Shown piece after piece: positions 6,671 through 16,341 of a stretch of DNA of 57,677 nucleotides; positions within the stretch are counted from its first letter, which is position 1, and each line of letters opens with the position of its first letter. The notes beneath the pieces are model-generated. The model did no database searches. It was not told the DNA's origin and worked only from the letters and a program-made list of their open reading frames with translations. This DNA comes from Escherichia phage vB_EcoP_24B, in the sequence record HM208303. The stretch is one strand, 5' to 3'. The translations under genes were made by a program, and so were the position numbers.

Positions 6671-6803
6671 TCTTTGGGACTCCTGGCTGATTAGGTATGT
6701 CGATAAGGCGTTTCCATCCGTCACGTAATTTACGGGTGATTCGTTCAAGTAAAGATTCGGAAGGGCAGCCAGCAACAGGCCACCCTGCAATGGCATATTG
6801 CAT
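6639..6803 (-). CDS. cIII: cIII (FtsH inhibitor, lysogeny promoting)
   Basis: Internal Met of the 6639-6875 ORF gives 54 aa MQYAIAGWPVAGCPSESLLERITRKLRDGWKRL..., matching lambda cIII. Confidence 0.85.
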   Translation of the reverse strand: MQYAIAGWPVAGCPSESLLERITRKLRDGWKRLIDIPNQPGVPKNGSNTYGYPD

Positions 6804-6875
6804 GGTGTGCTCCTTATTTATACATAACGAAAAACGCCTCGAGTGAAGCGTTATTGGTATGCGGTAAAGCCGCAC

Positions 6876-7865: not shown

Positions 7866-7923
7866 ATCTCACCTCAAATAAGTGGTTTGCTGCCTAATTT
7901 CATTTTCTGGCGACCAACACAAG

Positions 7924-8307
7924 TCACCTCGCCGTCAGTTGTTTTGATTTCCGGTAGCCTGCCGCGTAAATGGCTACGTTTGGAAGACATACACCAGTTT
8001 CTGGTTGCTTATGTCCAAACTCATTCGCGTACACAATGGCCGCTCGCTCCAGATTGCGTCTGTATTCTTTCTGTTGCCAGATCACGTCCTGTGCCATGAA
8101 CTTAATTGGCTTAGCGTCTTCTATGCGCTCAGGCGTTTCGTGAGTACCTTTAGCCTGAATCTGCGCTCTGCTTAGAGTAGGGCGGTGTAATACTTCTGAA
8201 CTTATTGCTTCTTCGCGGGCCAGTACGCCGTTAGCTAATGCCTTTGCCTTTAAACGCTCACGACGACGAGAACGTGAATTGCCTTTGAACTGAGTTCTGC
8301 GTGTCAT
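7924..8307 (-). CDS. N: N-like transcription antiterminator
   Basis: 127 aa with an N-terminal arginine-rich motif (RRTQFKGNSRSRRRERLKAKA), first gene of the leftward early operon. Confidence 0.6.
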   Translation of the reverse strand: MTRRTQFKGNSRSRRRERLKAKALANGVLAREEAISSEVLHRPTLSRAQIQAKGTHETPERIEDAKPIKFMAQDVIWQQKEYRRNLERAAIVYANEFGHKQPETGVCLPNVAIYAAGYRKSKQLTAR

Positions 8308-8472
8308 ATAGACCTCCTGATGAACTTTGGTGGTGTGGTAGGTGGGAGACCCATTTCGACCTGTTTCGGCCTACTTCAATTCGGCAATAGTCCCGCAGGC
8401 CTCGCCGCTTTACGTGCGACATATTCCCGTCCATGAACCCTTCACCACACCCCAAAGTTCACTTTGGTTATT

Positions 8473-8487
8473 GCGCTTTGTCAGCGC
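8473..8487 (-). promoter_or_regulatory. Candidate nutL boxB hairpin (minus strand GCGCU-GACAA-AGCGC)
   Basis: 5-bp stem with a GACAA pentaloop in the N leader; a near-identical hairpin sits after cro at 11986-12000. Confidence 0.35.
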
Positions 8488-8777
8488 CGTAGATTCATAT
8501 TCGAATCGTTGTATATTCACCGCCCTGGTGAGTAATGCGTCCTGCTGACGACGATAATAATGAACCAATAGTTCGACATTATCAAGAACTATTGGTACGA
8601 ATTTTGGTGATTTATTAACTCTACGAAGTATGATTCTGATATATAAGGAAATTTATTTTTGAAAATGTGGCTGATGAAGGTTATGCGGCAGGGATCATAA
8701 CTGCATGGTTTAGCGAGTTACATCAATAAATACAATTGGTTATGTTTTTTAGGTGGGCGAACGTGAGGCAAAGAAAA

Positions 8778-8795
8778 CCCGGCGCTGAGGCCGGG
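8778..8795 (-). terminator. Intrinsic terminator closing the cI-kinase operon
   Basis: CCCGGC-GCTGAG-GCCGGG hairpin followed on the minus strand by UUUUCUUU; immediately after the 54-codon ORF. Confidence 0.5.
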
Positions 8796-8960
8796 CTAGA
8801 TTTTAAAGTATTTATCTTTTAGAGATGTAGATGTAAAACTTTTCGCCTTTGAAAATTTTTTGTCATCAGAAGGGCTTATGAACTCATCTTTTTTGTAGGG
8901 AACCGCTAATGCTGCATCACGTCTGCGAGGCAGCTTGCTTACTTCCTCGCGCTTTTTCAT
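8796..8960 (-). CDS. Small Lys-rich ORF (54 aa) directly downstream of the kinase
   Basis: Hand-translated MKKREEVSKLPRRRDAALAVPYKKDEF...; ATG 2 nt after the kinase stop, AGGA about 9 nt upstream; below the ORF-track length cutoff. Confidence 0.3.
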   Translation of the reverse strand: MKKREEVSKLPRRRDAALAVPYKKDEFISPSDDKKFSKAKSFTSTSLKDKYFKI

Positions 8961-8962
8961 GA

Positions 8963-10009
8963 TCAGTTATCCTTTAATAACCTATACAGTTTTGTAGGGG
9001 TACATCCTGAGGATATTGTTAAGTTCGTAGCACGCCTTTTCCGCCCATCATCGTATAAACGAAAACCAGTAGTAGACGAATTTTCTGCGTCAAAAACTAT
9101 AGACAGTATAGCGTCCCCAGACTTTTTTTGCCATTCGCATGTGCCGTTAGTTGGTTTCGTCATCTGTAGACGCCAGTCAAGAACGCCATCACTTATAGCT
9201 GAGAGATCGTTTAGTACATCTAGTACGGATTGATATCTTTCATTTGGATCTACATGAATGCATTTGTTCACTATTGTTATTAATTTTTTATGTATATGGG
9301 GAGGATACTCTTTTAATGGATAGCAGCCATTAATTATCGACTCTCTGAGTTGTTCAATCGTGCTAAATGCAGATCTTTCTCTTTCAAAATTATCATGTCC
9401 AACACACATTCTATATATGGTTAATCCTGCCTGATATATGTCATATGTGAAATTATAATCATTTGTTGATAAAGAAAAATATTCCGGTGGCACATGAAAA
9501 TGATATCCAAACTCAGGCGCAGCTCTCGATTCCTCATTGACTAACTGAGATAATCCAAAGTCAGATAGCATGGCCTCATTTCTGTTTGATATCATAATGT
9601 TATTAGGTTTTATATCAAAATGCATAAGACCTTTTGAGTGTATATGATAAAGTCCACTTAAAAATTGAATGGAATACCGTATTATCTCCCTGCTTGTAAG
9701 ATTATTTTTTTTCATTAATTGGTTTAGCGAACCATTATGATAAAATGGCATGGCTATATAGATATTGCTCTCACATTGAGCAGCATACTGAACTTGCACA
9801 ATATTTGGATGTGCATGTTTATAGAGAAGCCTTGCTTCATTAAAGTAGTCGTCGTGGTTAGTGTTTTCTTTTTTTTCTATTTCTTTAATCACCAAGTCAT
9901 GAGCTAGGTGTCTGTCATGAGCCAGATATACTTTTGAAAAACAACCCTGTTCTTCTAGATCACTAATCCATTCGAATTCTACATCAGCTCTTTTGTATGG
10001 AGTTAGCAT
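8963..10009 (-). CDS. Eukaryotic-like (Hanks-type) protein kinase
   Basis: 348 aa; Gly-rich loop EQGCFSKV, VIK lysine, catalytic loop HFDIKPNN, SDFG; about 100-aa C-terminal extension; AT-rich. Confidence 0.85.
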   Translation of the reverse strand: MLTPYKRADVEFEWISDLEEQGCFSKVYLAHDRHLAHDLVIKEIEKKENTNHDDYFNEARLLYKHAHPNIVQVQYAAQCESNIYIAMPFYHNGSLNQLMKKNNLTSREIIRYSIQFLSGLYHIHSKGLMHFDIKPNNIMISNRNEAMLSDFGLSQLVNEESRAAPEFGYHFHVPPEYFSLSTNDYNFTYDIYQAGLTIYRMCVGHDNFERERSAFSTIEQLRESIINGCYPLKEYPPHIHKKLITIVNKCIHVDPNERYQSVLDVLNDLSAISDGVLDWRLQMTKPTNGTCEWQKKSGDAILSIVFDAENSSTTGFRLYDDGRKRRATNLTISSGCTPTKLYRLLKDN

Positions 10010-10464
10010 CCCCTTACCTCCGCAGATAGTGCAGCCAAAACAGCTTCATTTGTTTCAGTTGTAAAACCAGAATTATCGATTCCATTTATATTGCGGTGTG
10101 ACTTCAATATTTCTTTATACTCGATCTCTGTTAGGTTCAATGATGATTTCATGCCAGATTTTCTAATAGTGTAATATTTTCTTACATCACTGCTTGAAAA
10201 TGCTTCTTGAATAACAGCTTCTATATAAAGGCGGTCAATGCTAAGATTATCAGAGTTTGATTCAGTAACGCGTATGGCAGCTAATTCAACATTATATAAA
10301 TTAAGAATGTCGAGGATGTTATTTCTCACATACTTTAATTTTTCTGGTGTGTCTAAGGTCGAAGGTATTTTAATAACATCAACACATTTGAGTGCAGACT
10401 CATTAGTGCAATATACAACAAAAGATGTAACTTTGGGCGCCGCTCTAACACCTAGTATTCTCAT
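10003..10464 (-). CDS. Hypothetical protein (153 aa), translationally coupled to the kinase
   Basis: 7-nt overlap with the kinase start; AT-rich; no motif recognised. Confidence 0.6.
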   Translation of the reverse strand: MRILGVRAAPKVTSFVVYCTNESALKCVDVIKIPSTLDTPEKLKYVRNNILDILNLYNVELAAIRVTESNSDNLSIDRLYIEAVIQEAFSSSDVRKYYTIRKSGMKSSLNLTEIEYKEILKSHRNINGIDNSGFTTETNEAVLAALSAEVRGC

Positions 10465-10531
10465 TTTTTATATCCTATTTTAGAATCAGGCCGCATCTCT
10501 GCGACCATCCATCATCCAAACGTCTCTTCAC

Positions 10532-10873
10532 TCATCCGAAGAAGCAGCAATCCGGGTTAGCACGCACAAGCTCAAGCGCATCAGTCAGCGAAAGTTCAGT
10601 ACTGTACTGATGCCATTTCATATCCTTCCGCATCCAATAGATTTTCCATCTATCCAGAGAACGTATGTACTTGATTCTTGCTGATGGCAGGATGTTTGTT
10701 TCACCTGGATTGCCCTGCCACACGGGGCGCTGTTCGCCGATATCTATCGTTTGGTCATTGATGCTATAAACAATATCCAGTTCATTGCGGATATGTTCAG
10801 GCGGCCTTATGCTTTCAATGAATTGGTGAACTTCTTTTTTTACTGCTTGATATTCAAGGTCATTGAACGCCAT
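10532..10873 (-). CDS. Hypothetical protein (113 aa) immediately downstream of cI
   Basis: Co-directional with cI and the kinase; no motif recognised. Confidence 0.6.
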   Translation of the reverse strand: MAFNDLEYQAVKKEVHQFIESIRPPEHIRNELDIVYSINDQTIDIGEQRPVWQGNPGETNILPSARIKYIRSLDRWKIYWMRKDMKWHQYSTELSLTDALELVRANPDCCFFG

Positions 10874-10933
10874 CTATCCTCCTTACCCAAACGTCTCTTC
10901 AGGCCACTGGTTACCAGCTATGTGACGATGAAG

Positions 10934-11641
10934 TCACGAACTTTTCAGCCACTCCCTTGCCTCGATGTCATCCAGATGGCGAGATTGCTTCAGAATACCA
11001 GCTACATACTCCACCTTTGCTACTTGATGATAAGGCAACGTTATAGGCCTGTGATCCTGGTTAATGCTTGTAAATTGGTATTCTCCATCTCTGTCATAGC
11101 CAAGAACCTTAATCATGTTGTGTCCTTCAACGGTTCTGACAAACACCTCATCACCCGGGAATACTTTGGTGTTAGGCTCAATGAGTACATATTCTCCTGA
11201 TTTTATTCTGGGCCACATGCTGTCTCCTTTCACACGAAGACCAAAGGCATCTGGATCATCGCTATAAATTTTGAGCCACCCATCGCGCTCTTCGGTCATC
11301 TCGATGGCACCATCAACACCAAGAATTGCCTCACCAACCACGCGCACTAACCCTTTTTTTAATTTGCCAACAAATGAAAGAGTATCTTCATCATTCGCTC
11401 CATTTAACGAAGTGCCGTGCTGAAGCCAAACAACATCAACGTTTAGAAATTTCGCAAGCGCATTCATTTTTTCCTGACGCGGTAAAGACTCAGCATTAAA
11501 CCATTTGCTAACGCCTTTGGACGAAAGAGAAAGGGCACGGGCTATAGCCATTCCCCTACCATGTTCATCAAGACCAGCTTCTTTACAGGCTTGCGCTAGC
11601 CGCTGGGCGAATTCTTTGCGCACTTTTTCATTCTGAACCAT
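10934..11641 (-). CDS. cI: CI-type repressor (HTH plus S24 LexA-like autopeptidase)
   Basis: 235 aa; N-terminal HTH, C-terminal GDSMWP serine motif and downstream Lys; divergent from cro. Confidence 0.85.
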   Translation of the reverse strand: MVQNEKVRKEFAQRLAQACKEAGLDEHGRGMAIARALSLSSKGVSKWFNAESLPRQEKMNALAKFLNVDVVWLQHGTSLNGANDEDTLSFVGKLKKGLVRVVGEAILGVDGAIEMTEERDGWLKIYSDDPDAFGLRVKGDSMWPRIKSGEYVLIEPNTKVFPGDEVFVRTVEGHNMIKVLGYDRDGEYQFTSINQDHRPITLPYHQVAKVEYVAGILKQSRHLDDIEAREWLKSS

Positions 11642-11719
11642 GAGTACGATACTAAAGCACTTGCAAAAACTTTCAGTTCAACCATAATACGTACTGAAAG
11701 TACGAAAAAGGATATTCCT
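11642..11719. promoter_or_regulatory. Divergent promoter/operator region between cI and cro
   Basis: 78-bp intergenic with inverted elements ACTTTCAGT (11668-11676) and ACTGAAAGT (11693-11701) and the palindrome CGTACTGAAAGTACG; operator boundaries not resolved. Confidence 0.5.
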
Positions 11720-11947
11720 ATGCAAAATCTTGATGAGCCGATTAAAGGTGTCGGCATCCCTGAAGTTGCGAAGGCTTGTGGAGTTAGCGAAAGGGCTGTC
11801 TATAAGTGGCTCAAAAACGGCTTCCTCCCTAAGACTGAGTTTTTTGGGAAAACTAAATACGCATCAAAAATCGAAGAGATTTCTGGTGGCAAATATCAAG
11901 CAAGCGAAATGCTTGAAATAAGCAAAAAGAACCTTCTGGCTGCATAA
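11720..11947 (+). CDS. cro: Cro-like HTH regulator
   Basis: 75 aa with HTH (VAKACGVSERAVYKWLKNG); first rightward gene. Confidence 0.7.
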   Translation: MQNLDEPIKGVGIPEVAKACGVSERAVYKWLKNGFLPKTEFFGKTKYASKIEEISGGKYQASEMLEISKKNLLAA

Positions 11948-11985
11948 GTAACACCGCTATTTTCACAATGGACATTCGTCCTACG

Positions 11986-12000
11986 TCGCTGACAAAGCGA
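11986..12000 (+). promoter_or_regulatory. Candidate nutR boxB hairpin (UCGCU-GACAA-AGCGA)
   Basis: Same stem-loop architecture and loop sequence as the nutL candidate; located between cro and cII. Confidence 0.35.
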
Positions 12001-12085
12001 GTCCCAATATATCTGACCAACTAAGGCCATATGCGTTTCCACGCATACCTTTCAACTAACTATTCACTATTGGAAATCTTAAGAA

Positions 12086-12385
12086 ATGGAACAAACAAGT
12101 TACAGCAAACTATCCCAGCGTGACGTTGATCGCGCAGAAACTGATTTACTCATCAACCTGTCAACGCTTACCCAGCGTGGTCTGGCAAAGATGATTGGCT
12201 GTCATGAATCGAAGATAAGCAGAACGGACTGGAGGTTTATTGCTTCGGTCTTGTGTGCTTTCGGAATGGCATCAGACATCAGTCCGATTAGCAGGGCTTT
12301 TAAGTATGCGCTTGATGGACTCACCAATAAAAAACGCCCGGTGTGCAAGACCGAGCGTTCTGATCAAATACAAATGGAATTTTAA
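12086..12385 (+). CDS. cII: CII transcriptional activator
   Basis: 99 aa; C-terminal TNKKRP...TERS.QIQMEF matches the lambda CII C-terminus as recalled. Confidence 0.85.
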   Translation: MEQTSYSKLSQRDVDRAETDLLINLSTLTQRGLAKMIGCHESKISRTDWRFIASVLCAFGMASDISPISRAFKYALDGLTNKKRPVCKTERSDQIQMEF

Positions 12386-12407
12386 CAACATCCAACGAGG
12401 TAATTAT

Positions 12408-13434: not shown

Positions 13435-16341
13435 ATGACTCCAAGTGAACTGAGCGACCTGCTTTGGGCGCAGGTTGACAGGGTGGCTCCGCACCTGTTG
13501 CCAAACGGCAAGAAAGAGGGGCATGAGTGGGTTGCCGGTAACGTCAACGGTGACAAGGGAAACAGCCTTAAGGTCAACATTAGCGGCAAGAAAAAATGGG
13601 CTGATTTCGCTGAGGGAGACGGCGGTGACATGCTTGATTTGTGGATGGCATGTCGTGGAATTAACCTGCATCAGGCTATGCAGGAAGCGAAAGCATTTCT
13701 CGGTATCAAGGATGACGATCACCATTTCGATGCCAAACGTGAGAAAAAATTCTCCAGACCTGACCGCAAGAAAATCGCCCGCTACGTTACCAGAACAGAA
13801 TCCCATCTTGAGTACCTGCAATCGCGTGGCATATCGCCAGAAATCGTAAAGCGCTACGAGGTTGTCAGCGGCAAGGTGTGGAATGGAGAGCGGGAACTGG
13901 ATGCTCTGGTGCTTCCGTACAAACGCGATGGTGAGTTGTTGCAGGTCAAGCGAATCAGCACTGAGCGCCCGGACGGGAAGAAAGTCATTATGGCAGAAGG
14001 TGATTGCGAACCTTGTCTGTTCGGATGGCAGGCTCTGGACGCTGGCGTGAGGGCGGTTGTACTTTGCGAAGGCGAAATTGATTGTATGAGCTATGCGCAA
14101 TACGGCATCTCGGCGTTATCCGTGCCGTTTGGTGGCGGGAAAGGCGCTAAGCAGCAGTGGATTGAGTTTGAGTATCACAACCTCGACAGGTTTGAGGAAA
14201 TATTCATCTCGATGGACGTTGATGATGTTGGTCGTGAAGCCGCAAGGGAAATCGCAAGCCGACTCGGTGAACATCGTTGCCGTCTTGTTACTCTGCCGTA
14301 CAAAGACATCAACGAATGCCTGATGAACGGTGTTACCGAGGATGAAATCTGGCAGTACATCGGCACGGCATCCTATTTCGATCCTGAAGAACTCTACAGT
14401 GCGCGAGAGTTTTACCAGGACACTATCAACGCTTTCTACGGCAAGAAGCAGTATCTGTTTAATCCACCGTGGGAATCTCTGGCAGATAAATTCCAGTTCC
14501 GTGAGGCCGAGTTGACGCTGGTCAATGGTGTGAACGGTCACGGAAAGGCATGCCCACTGAATGAGCCTATTCTTTTAGCTGATGGGACATGGACTACTCA
14601 CGGGGATGTAAAAATTGGCGATCAGGTGGCGTCAGTAGACGGCAATCCGTCAACTGTCACTGGGATATTCCCGCAGGGTGTTAGAGATGTTTACCGAGTC
14701 ACATTTGAAGATGGTCGTTATGTTGATTGCGCAGGCGATCACCTATGGGAGGTCACTAGTCGTGGATTCACGAAAGGCGAGAAACGCCGCGTGATTGACA
14801 CCTTCGAGCTGAAGCGGTTGAGTGAAACGAAGAGGCACAAAAATGGCGTTAGGATTCCTGAAATAACTGGTGACTTTGGCGACCACTCAGAGCCATTAGC
14901 ATGGGTTATCGGCTCCCTTCTCGGGGATGGTAGTCTTAGCAATGGGAGCGTGAAGTTTTCAAACGTCGAGCCATACATGATCGAGCGTATGAAGGCTGAA
15001 CTGCCTGATTACAACTTCTCTGGAGATGGTAAGGACTGGCTGATATCAACGGCGCGTGGTCAGGCAAATCCACTCATGGAGACCCTGCGAGGTTATGGAC
15101 TAATGGGGTGCACAGCAAAAAACAAATTCATCCCTCGTGTGTTTTTTTCCGCAAATAAATCAACGCGTATAGGCATGCTGTGTGGTCTGCTTGAAACGGA
15201 TGGGTATGTCGAGAAGGATGGAACGCTTGTTTTTTCCTCAGCAAGTGAAGAACTGCGCAATGGGGTTGTTCAACTGGTTAACTCACTCGGCGGGTCATGC
15301 CGGACGCGAGTTAAAACTGGCGTGACATACACATACAAGGACGATAAGCGGCATGGGATGGATTCATACGAGGCAAGAATCAGACTGACAAGAGAAATCA
15401 GGGAGGCCATCCGTTCACCACGACTCAATGGCAGATTAACTGCGCATCGATTCGAGGGCTGTGGGGTATTCGTCAGGAATGTTGAAAAAATCGGCAATGC
15501 AGAATGCTTGTGTATTATGGTCGATCACCCTCGCCACCTGTATGTAACCAGGGGATATGTGGCGACGCATAACACCGAGGTTGTCGGGCATATGGCACTT
15601 GAGGCAATGCGTCAGGGTGTGAAGACGTGCATCGCGTCACTTGAGCTGAAGCCTGGTATTCTCCTTAAGCGCCTTACCCGTCAGGCGACGTGCTGCAAGA
15701 TGCCGCCAGTGCTGGAAATTGACTCTGCATTTAAATTTTATGACGAAAGACTTTGGGTGTTTGGCCTGACCGGAACGGCGAAAGCCGACAGGCTGATCGA
15801 AATATTCGACTACGCTCGCCGCCGATACGGTATCCAGTTATTCATCATCGACAGCCTGATGAAATGTGGCATAGGCGACGATGACTATAACGGGCAGAAG
15901 GCGTTTGTTGACTCGATTTGCGACTTCAAAAACAAAACAAACTCCCACGTCATTCTCGTTACTCACTCGCGAAAAGGAGACAGCGAAGAAAAACCAACCG
16001 GGAAAATGGACGTAAAAGGCTCTGGAGCGATAACAGACCTGACAGACAACCTTTTCATCATCTGGCGTAACAAGGCTCGCGAGAGAGCGTTACAGAGAGT
16101 TCAGAGTGGTGAAAAGATGTCAGAGAAGGACGAACAGCTACTGGCATCTCCGGCATCTGTTTTGATGCTTGAAAAACAACGTAACGGCGAAGGTTGGGAA
16201 GGTGGTGTCCCGTTGTTCCTTGACGAGCAATCGCACCAGTTCCTGCAACTTGAATCAGGATCGCCATATAGCTACATCGCCAATATGCCGAAATCGGAAT
16301 ATGACGAGGCGTGGCGACAGGAAAACGTGACGGAGTATTAA
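13435..16341 (+). CDS. Bifunctional DNA primase / replicative helicase, interrupted by an intein
   Basis: 968 aa; Toprim motif (VVLCEGEIDC) N-terminally; RecA-like helicase C-terminally (LFIIDSLM Walker B-like); about 341-aa insertion with intein hallmarks. Confidence 0.85.
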   Translation: MTPSELSDLLWAQVDRVAPHLLPNGKKEGHEWVAGNVNGDKGNSLKVNISGKKKWADFAEGDGGDMLDLWMACRGINLHQAMQEAKAFLGIKDDDHHFDAKREKKFSRPDRKKIARYVTRTESHLEYLQSRGISPEIVKRYEVVSGKVWNGERELDALVLPYKRDGELLQVKRISTERPDGKKVIMAEGDCEPCLFGWQALDAGVRAVVLCEGEIDCMSYAQYGISALSVPFGGGKGAKQQWIEFEYHNLDRFEEIFISMDVDDVGREAAREIASRLGEHRCRLVTLPYKDINECLMNGVTEDEIWQYIGTASYFDPEELYSAREFYQDTINAFYGKKQYLFNPPWESLADKFQFREAELTLVNGVNGHGKACPLNEPILLADGTWTTHGDVKIGDQVASVDGNPSTVTGIFPQGVRDVYRVTFEDGRYVDCAGDHLWEVTSRGFTKGEKRRVIDTFELKRLSETKRHKNGVRIPEITGDFGDHSEPLAWVIGSLLGDGSLSNGSVKFSNVEPYMIERMKAELPDYNFSGDGKDWLISTARGQANPLMETLRGYGLMGCTAKNKFIPRVFFSANKSTRIGMLCGLLETDGYVEKDGTLVFSSASEELRNGVVQLVNSLGGSCRTRVKTGVTYTYKDDKRHGMDSYEARIRLTREIREAIRSPRLNGRLTAHRFEGCGVFVRNVEKIGNAECLCIMVDHPRHLYVTRGYVATHNTEVVGHMALEAMRQGVKTCIASLELKPGILLKRLTRQATCCKMPPVLEIDSAFKFYDERLWVFGLTGTAKADRLIEIFDYARRRYGIQLFIIDSLMKCGIGDDDYNGQKAFVDSICDFKNKTNSHVILVTHSRKGDSEEKPTGKMDVKGSGAITDLTDNLFIIWRNKARERALQRVQSGEKMSEKDEQLLASPASVLMLEKQRNGEGWEGGVPLFLDEQSHQFLQLESGSPYSYIANMPKSEYDEAWRQENVTEY
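14551..15573 (+). mobile_element. Intein with LAGLIDADG-type homing-endonuclease motifs
   Basis: Begins at Cys (KA|CPLNEPILLADG), block-B-like TxxH, two LAGLIDADG-like motifs (SLLGDGSL, LCGLLETDGYV), ends His-Asn followed by Thr (ATHN|TEV); in frame, about 341 aa. Confidence 0.75.

Follow-up and report, generated by a model that had tools for sequence, protein, structure and literature searches.

The nut (N-utilization) sites of lambdoid phages harbor a hairpin termed boxB, 5' of which a boxA element (CGCUCUU(U)A) serves NusB/NusE. Among the closest described systems, the nutR of the Shiga-toxin (Stx) 1 phage H-19B is a model nut site and a standard experimental system for the mechanism of N, NusA and Rho, and the nut sites of phage 933W have been in GenBank since 1999. 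Here we compare with these systems two matched hairpins in Escherichia phage vB_EcoP_24B (HM208303), the whole 57,677-nucleotide (nt) stretch of which is referred to as the window. The two hairpins are almost certainly the nutL and nutR boxB elements of a 933W/H-19B-type Shiga-toxin phage, operating within the standard N/nut antitermination mechanism.

The H-19B nutR holds two hairpins, its nut and rut sequences overlap, and termination at nutR/tR1 is Rho-dependent; N-dependent read-through at this site has been shown in vivo as well as in vitro (Muteeb et al. 2012, PMC3526286). In footprints, N together with NusA/NusG shields the spacer and boxB, including the G of the boxB loop, from RNase H and T1, and protection of the spacer is also found with N and NusA/NusG/Rho, while boxA and the region after boxB are unprotected (PMC3526286). 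A random screen for N proteins defective at H-19B nutR/tR1 returned only R3H, S11F, R15C, R15P and R18P, all of which lie in the nut-binding region, and a mutant in which 12-RSRRRER-18 of the arginine-rich motif (ARM) is changed to alanine fails in vitro (PMC3526286). In phage P22, the GACAA pentaloop has been solved in complex with the N peptide (PDB 1A4T), and its C is looped out (PMC12550061).

The paired boxB hairpins

Read directly from the letters, the nutL boxB lies on the minus strand at 8487..8473 (GCGCTGACAAAGCGC) and has the form GCGCU-GACAA-AGCGC, and the nutR boxB lies on the plus strand at 11986..12000 (TCGCTGACAAAGCGA) and has the form UCGCU-GACAA-AGCGA. The two differ in their outermost pair alone, which is U-A at nutR in place of G-C at nutL, and CTACG (CUACG in the RNA) is found directly 5' of both. 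A first-pass annotation, made from the sequence, had described this pair of hairpins with identical loops and the CTACG before each, and on both counts it proves exact, in the sequence and in the fold. The asymmetric GACAA loop stands in transcription sense at both sites, although these are on opposite DNA strands. In isolation, each hairpin folds as a stem of 5 base pairs (bp) capped by the GACAA pentaloop, with energies of -7.1 kcal/mol for nutL and -5.6 kcal/mol for nutR and stability z-scores against dinucleotide shuffles of -3.2 and -3.8, respectively. Both are kept in contexts of 63-146 nt, with pair probabilities of 0.75-0.92. The 19-mer pattern CTACG-N-CGCTGACAAAGCG is present in exactly two copies in the 57.7-kb window (expected 0.00) and occurred 0 times in 100 shuffles with two mismatches permitted, and no third copy of its 13-mer core is found in the window. 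The hairpin pair is no chance match. A scan of the whole window at Rfam gathering scores matched no nut or boxB family, but the library is without such a family and the scan is hence uninformative.

Positions 7900-12400 of the window are 100% identical to the Stx2a phages F403, F451 and phiXuzhou21, and 99.6% identical to 933W and many Stx1a phages; by its sequence, the window is a 933W-family Stx2a phage. The 933W record AF125520 (1999) contains features described as 'nutL; putative N-utilization leftward' and 'nutR; putative N-utilization rightward'. These features, whose coordinates were carried over by offset (locus + 7599) and checked at 100% identity, map to 8473-8539 on the minus strand and 11955-12000 on the plus strand, the nutL feature (9614-9680 in AF125520) reaching from the putative boxA to boxB. 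Both features end at the final base of the hairpins described here. Phage HK106 (EF120461) has the same nut modules beside a lambda-like pL, with boxA and boxB annotated separately, and its annotated boxB is the same hairpin as in the window at both sites. The experiments on H-19B made use of four oligonucleotides antisense to boxA, spacer and boxB of nutR and to the stretch just after boxB (PMC3526286), and the reverse complements of these match the window exactly, at 11943-11966 (RS662, boxA), 11964-11985 (spacer), 11982-12005 (RS664, boxB) and 12001-12026 (after boxB).

The nutL boxB lies 165 nt upstream of the N ATG (8307) and downstream of a pL-like promoter (8585..8557), and the nutR boxB begins 39 nt past the cro stop codon (11945-11947) and upstream of the cII start at 12086. 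The first-pass annotation had placed the hairpins where nutL and nutR are expected, and this is borne out by their presence in the pL-N leader and the cro-cII interval and by alignment, in which they occupy the boxB slots of lambda at both sites. The locus displays the general features of a lambdoid nut system: each boxB is a stem of about 5 bp with a purine-rich, G-initiated loop on the sense strand, one site is found between pL and N and the other between cro and the rightward terminator/cII, and the first gene of the pL operon encodes a small, basic N protein that bears an ARM at its N terminus.

The N antiterminator, a protein of 127 amino acids (7924..8307, minus strand), was recognised as an open reading frame (ORF) and by its match to PF25694 (N_peptide, 'Transcriptional antitermination N peptide'), which scores 57.5 bits against a curated cutoff of 27.9. 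Its ARM, at about residues 2-24 (MTRRTQFKGNSRSRRRERLKAKA), contains RSRRRER. The protein is 98% identical to the N of H-19B, and residues 1-59, which include the ARM, are identical. The ARMs of this N and of P22 gp24 both fit the pattern F-x-G-N-[SA]-[RK]-[ST]-R-R-x-E-R. When N was compared by sequence with PDB chains, the sole match was a chance one (E = 1.5), and the P22 N peptide complex was not recovered. The proposal that the hairpins and this arginine-rich protein form an N-type antitermination circuit is backed by the 933W and HK106 annotation, by identity with H-19B, by the PF25694 match and by the covariation that is described below.

Coordinated change of boxB loops and the N peptide

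Related loci were collected from IMG/VR. A search seeded with the N protein gave only 99-100% identical copies, which are unusable for covariation, so the database was scanned instead with a DNA pattern of the conserved nutL flanks in which the hairpin was left free, giving at least 120 loci. As MAFFT shifted the tetraloop forms out of register, the loop was used to fix the register and the stem pairs were counted from the sequences themselves. Three classes of hairpin are found in the nutL slot. The form seen in the window, GCGCU-GACAA-AGCGC, is present at 90 loci or more, a second form with a true GNRA tetraloop, [C/A]GGCU-GAAA-AGCC[G/U], at 25 or more, and a third, GCUC-CGUCAAC-GAGC, at five or more. 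From the outermost to the innermost, the stem positions display at least 4, 3, 2, 1 and 2 standard pair types, with the nutR variants and P22 counted, and the sole non-pairs among the matches listed are the C.C closures of the heptaloop forms.

Among the matches listed, to which all counts in this paragraph refer, the ARM class of N follows the nutL loop class in 117 of the 117 loci that hold N. The GACAA loop pairs with the ARM of the window N given above, the GAAA loop with MTRRTAFNGSAAGRRRERRAALQN and the CGUCAAC loop with FKGTSRARRRERLKAKA. The loop class at nutR also matches that at nutL in every locus where both were located (96/96), these loci being divided, as nutL/nutR, into 73 GACAA/GACAA, 19 GAAA/GAAA and 4 GUCAA/GACAA. 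Between nutL and nutR lie 1.2-3.6 kb of mosaic immunity DNA, in which cro 3' ends of at least 20 kinds are seen. The compensatory pairs in the stems point to selection on structure, and the class agreement points to matching between ARM and loop.

It is possible, and we put it forward only tentatively, that at least three interchangeable ARM/loop specificity cassettes exist within one H-19B-type N family, set into an otherwise conserved nut scaffold without a functional nutL boxA. The pairs in question are FKGNSRSRRRERLK with GACAA, FNGSAAGRRRERRAALQ with the true GAAA tetraloop, and FKGTSRARRRERLK with C-GUCAA-C at nutL or U-GACAA-G at nutR. The GACAA class is common to Stx1 and Stx2 phages. 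Should the classes prove to be functionally orthogonal, they would determine which lambdoid or Stx prophages resident in one cell can trans-activate each other's early operons.

A boxB with a GAAA tetraloop, in the same nutL/nutR scaffold, is found in epsilon34, SI5, an Enterobacter phage and the IMG/VR loci of the second class (at least 25). At nutR, the tetraloop forms are UCGCU-GAAA-AGCGA or UAGCU-GAAA-AGCUA, and among the matches listed the tetraloop boxB is always paired with the lambda-like ARM GRRRERRAALQ. A 'novel BoxB specificity' was predicted in the epsilon34 genome paper, which did not name the hairpin. This natural GAAA-tetraloop boxB has no extruded loop base; if it is a true boxB, then the extruded base of the lambda/P22 paradigm would be dispensable for the N-NusA complex here.

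The nut sites of this phage type were already known, and their confirmation brings nothing new on this genome, although it demonstrates that nut sites are recognisable from raw sequence. A small added value lies in the comparative table of coordinated ARM, nutL-loop and nutR-loop switching among relatives. The three co-varying ARM/boxB classes, including the natural GAAA tetraloop, together with the doubtful nutL boxA, are mildly new.

The nut modules and competing explanations

At nutR, a boxA-like sequence, CGCUAUUUU (11955..11963, plus strand), lies in the region of the RS662 oligonucleotide and aligns with the lambda boxA CGCUCUUAC, from which it departs at position 5; the boxA annotated in HK106 is CGCUCUUUU. 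A boxA at nutR is not recognisable in many relatives. At nutL, an alignment with the lambda pL leader shows nothing boxA-like in the boxA slot of lambda. The putative nutL boxA, CGCAUUACU (8531..8539, minus strand), is taken from the HK106 boxA annotation (CGCACUACU), and it aligns with the lambda pL-leader sequence CGCACUGAC, which is present in lambda besides its real boxA. As the lambda slot is without boxA-like sequence and CGCAUUACU aligns with a non-boxA part of the lambda leader, the nutL boxA assignment appears to be weak. A weak nutL boxA fits with the unprotected boxA of H-19B and with the 'reduced requirement for host factors' that the primary H-19B nut paper, by Neely and Friedman in 2000, reportedly describes, to go by its title alone.

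Other hairpins surround the two boxB elements. The nutL spacer folds as GAUUC-GAAUAU-GAAUC (8492..8507, minus strand), the arms of which are conserved and the loop variable among relatives, and the nutR spacer folds as GGAC-AUUC-GUCC (11970..11981, plus strand), for which the double-compensatory variant GGGC-ACUC-GCCC is found among relatives. Further 5' in the pL leader is the hairpin UCACC-AGGGC-GGUGA (8517..8531, minus strand), which by alignment is common to the lambda pL leader. Just 3' of the nutL boxB, the hairpin CCAAAG-UGAA-CUUUGG (8452..8467, minus strand) is conserved in all relatives, and by alignment the lambda N leader holds a homologous stretch, CAAAG...CUUUGGGGUGUG. The first six bases of the predicted pL transcript, GUCAGC (8544-8549), are complementary to GCUGAC (8480-8485), which makes up part of the 5' arm and loop of boxB. 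The alternative fold that pairs these two segments lies only 1.7 kcal/mol above the minimum free energy, and it may be one of the 'alternative NUT RNA structures' that are mentioned in the title of the H-19B paper.

When set against H-19B, the nutL module (8448-8548, minus strand) is a sharply bounded mosaic unit. Identity runs from the pL +1 to about 25 nt past boxB, and outside the module there is an unrelated operator/promoter upstream and a diverged, indel-bearing leader downstream until the N Shine-Dalgarno sequence. Some deposited genomes, PV189402 among them, list an ORF of 52 amino acids over nutL (8410-8568, minus strand) as a 'hypothetical protein'. This ORF is most probably a false gene prediction, since it extends over the pL start, boxA, the spacer and boxB.

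In the explanation that we favour, prophage induction would lead RNA polymerase to transcribe both nut sites, leftward from pL (~8549) and rightward from pR (~11695), and each nascent RNA would fold into the 5-bp stem with its GACAA pentaloop. This loop, which sits on a G/C-rich stem closed by U-A as in the P22-type class, would by analogy adopt a GNRA-like fold of the P22 type, in which the C is flipped out. The N-terminal ARM of N, the product of the first gene of the pL operon, would bind the boxB loop, and with NusG and spacer-bound NusA, N would be passed to the elongating polymerase. The polymerase would then resist the Rho-dependent tR1 just past nutR as well as later terminators, allowing expression of the delayed-early genes, with cII and replication rightward and cIII and recombination leftward. 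The nutL site would work as nutR does, and boxA, NusB and NusE would probably contribute little. In 933W-type phages, the path that leads from prophage induction through Q to Shiga-toxin expression has N antitermination at nutL and nutR among its early steps, and the two sites are thus of biological importance.

Several points weigh against this explanation. The published experiments concern H-19B and not this exact genome, and the published biochemistry covered here concerns nutR, so that the likely function of nutL is read from annotation, homology and covariation. The degenerate boxA at nutR and its absence from the lambda slot at nutL suggest that this is not a full lambda-type nut. At two positions of the ARM alignment, the residues reported to contact the flipped C in P22 appear to differ here (His to Arg16 and Arg to Leu19, in the numbering of this analysis), and with Arg16 and Leu19 at these positions the geometry of recognition need not equal that of P22. 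Finally, the match between ARM and nutL could partly reflect physical linkage, as the two are separated by about 170 nt. More weight falls on the nutR match, which linkage explains much less well and which speaks for selection on a cognate pair of peptide and RNA.

The hairpins might also be viewed as palindromes that act at the level of DNA, for example as an extra operator for a dimeric DNA-binding protein, and not as RNA elements. As perfect 5-bp inverted repeats with a 5-bp centre near the immunity region they have the outward form of such sites. However, the asymmetric GACAA centre keeps its transcription sense on opposite strands, which a symmetric site would not need, and the arms vary by compensation, so that the pairing is kept and the sequence is not, as is typical of an RNA stem. 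The real operators, moreover, have an unrelated half-site, and RNA footprints on the identical H-19B sequence show protection by N and NusA/NusG, leaving the palindrome explanation with next to no probability. Alternatively, as the two hairpins are short, GC-rich and located in a 5' leader or between cistrons, they could be unrelated to N and serve generically in RNA stability, termination or RNase processing. Neither hairpin is followed by a U-tract, though (AAUAACC and GUCCCAAU, respectively), and neither was called terminator-like. At both sites the loop co-varies with the ARM class of N, and ARM mutants lose function at the identical H-19B nutR; both findings speak further against a generic role, which is very improbable.

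A further role would be additional to antitermination and does not exclude it. Lambda N bound at the nutL boxB is said, in work of Wilson, Court and colleagues from 1997, to repress translation of the N mRNA. The lambda N leader is RNase III-sensitive, and a role attaches to its CAAAG...CUUUGGGGUGUG stretch. By analogy, N bound at the nutL boxB of the window might repress its own translation by way of the conserved downstream hairpin. The homology of the pL leader with that of lambda, including the stretch that folds as CCAAAG-UGAA-CUUUGG, the conservation of this hairpin (8467-8452) in all relatives and the small energy gap to the alternative GUCAGC-GCUGAC pairing are leads towards such autoregulation. 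Against it, the analogy is drawn from lambda and not from direct evidence in this phage family, and the 145 nt between the hairpin and the N start are not conserved between 933W and H-19B. We regard autoregulation as somewhat unlikely, and retain the assignment of both hairpins as boxB elements of an N/nut antitermination system as the favoured explanation.

Early promoters, neighbouring genes and known phages

The genes of the region are ordered N (7924-8307, minus strand), a small ORF, the stk kinase, two ORFs, cI, cro and cII. Within this immunity region order, cI occupies 10934-11641 on the minus strand, cro 11720..11947 on the plus strand, the latter being supported by the ORF list, the 933W annotation and a profile match, and cII 12086-12385 on the plus strand. 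A promoter consensus scan gives the pL-like promoter as TTGATA-17-CATTAT (8557..8585, minus strand) with a transcript start at about 8549. This start coincides with the beginning of homology to the lambda and HK106 pL transcripts, the +1 of which aligns to ATCAGCAGG (8549-8541). Two operator-like dyads overlap pL, CGAACTATTGGTTCA at 8577..8563 and CGTACCAATAGTTCT at 8599..8585, and their half-sites match the annotated oR1 (CGTACTGAAAGTACG) and oR3 (TGAACCATGAGTACG). An inverted-repeat search at pL found none; the dyads came to light through a half-site pattern and inspection of the sequence, that at 8577..8563 being read directly. With the pL +1 at about 8549 and the operator-like dyads on pL, the nutL boxB falls at about +63 to +77 in a transcript under repressor control. 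The annotated tM hairpin, at 8776-8797, ends the pRM transcript upstream of pL.

On the other side of the immunity region, the pR promoter (11661-11688) lies with oR2 and oR1 in 11661..11704 on the plus strand, as mapped from the 933W annotation and supported by the consensus scan and the sequence. Its start is at about 11695, and the nutR boxB lies about 290 nt into the transcript. The region before cII, 12001..12085 on the plus strand, matches H-19B nutR/tR1 with one mismatch and is the probable Rho-dependent terminator tR1; no intrinsic terminator was called in 12001-12085. A strong terminator-like hairpin (12 pairs and a U-tract) is found at 12331-12361 on the minus strand, antisense to the 3' end of cII and in the position of the lambda oop terminator.

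Beyond the immunity region, a replication protein of 968 amino acids (13435-16341, plus strand) combines a Toprim primase with an AAA_25 helicase-type domain and is split by an intein. The intein has a weak, sub-threshold Hint match at residues 379-424 and a LAGLIDADG match at 579-634, and the insert has C as its first residue and ends in HN, which is followed by T. This protein stands in place of the 933W O/P module, and identity with 933W stops near 12343. Rfam matches at the gathering score are found in the regions 6758-6816 (minus strand), 18289-18486, 21679-21927 and 22902-23107 (all plus strand) and 23109-23161 (minus strand), and they comprise the Lambda cIII thermoregulator, the c4-a1b1/isrK/C4 antisense RNAs, three tRNAs, STnc100 and the anti-stx2 small RNA AsxR. 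These matches are consistent with the late-regulatory region of an Stx2 phage.

In comparison with known phages, the window has the same architecture as lambda, pL-nutL-N and pR-cro-nutR-tR1-cII, and its pL leader is homologous to that of lambda from +1 onward (AUCAGCAGGACGCA...). The factors N, NusA and NusG are found in both types. However, in lambda a GCCCU/AGGGC stem carries the loops GAAGA and GAAAA, whereas those of the window are GACAA, and the lambda ARM is different. Lambda also has a canonical boxA at both sites, unlike the window, and its nutR spacer is 14 nt shorter than that of the window, which contains GGAC-AUUC-GUCC. The P22 nutL boxB, GCGCUGACAAAGCGC, is base-for-base identical to the nutL hairpin described here, and P22 resembles the window in having a GACAA loop at both nut sites. 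The P22 nutR boxB, in contrast, is of the C-GACAA-C heptaloop form, and the P22 boxA is canonical (GCUCUUUA) and near boxB, whereas the window has a degenerate boxA and longer spacers in which hairpins form. P22 gp24 and the window N share the ARM core and are 67% identical over the last 30 residues, but the central region is unrelated and the overall identity is 38%.

The Shiga-toxin phages are closer. In H-19B (AF034975), the 13-mer is likewise present in two copies, at the equivalent places and in the same positions relative to pL, N, cro and cII. From boxA to beyond boxB, the H-19B nutR matches that of the window without a difference, its cro-cII interval has one mismatch and its nutL module differs by 1 nt. 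The leader from nutL to the N start is diverged from that of H-19B and is 32 nt longer in the window. The immunity of this Stx1 phage differs, with other cI and operators, and the window has the stk cluster in addition. Phage 933W is 100% identical over both nut features, has the same order, N - tM - stk - cI - cro - cII, and differs only beyond about 12343, where it carries O/P and the window an intein-containing primase-helicase.

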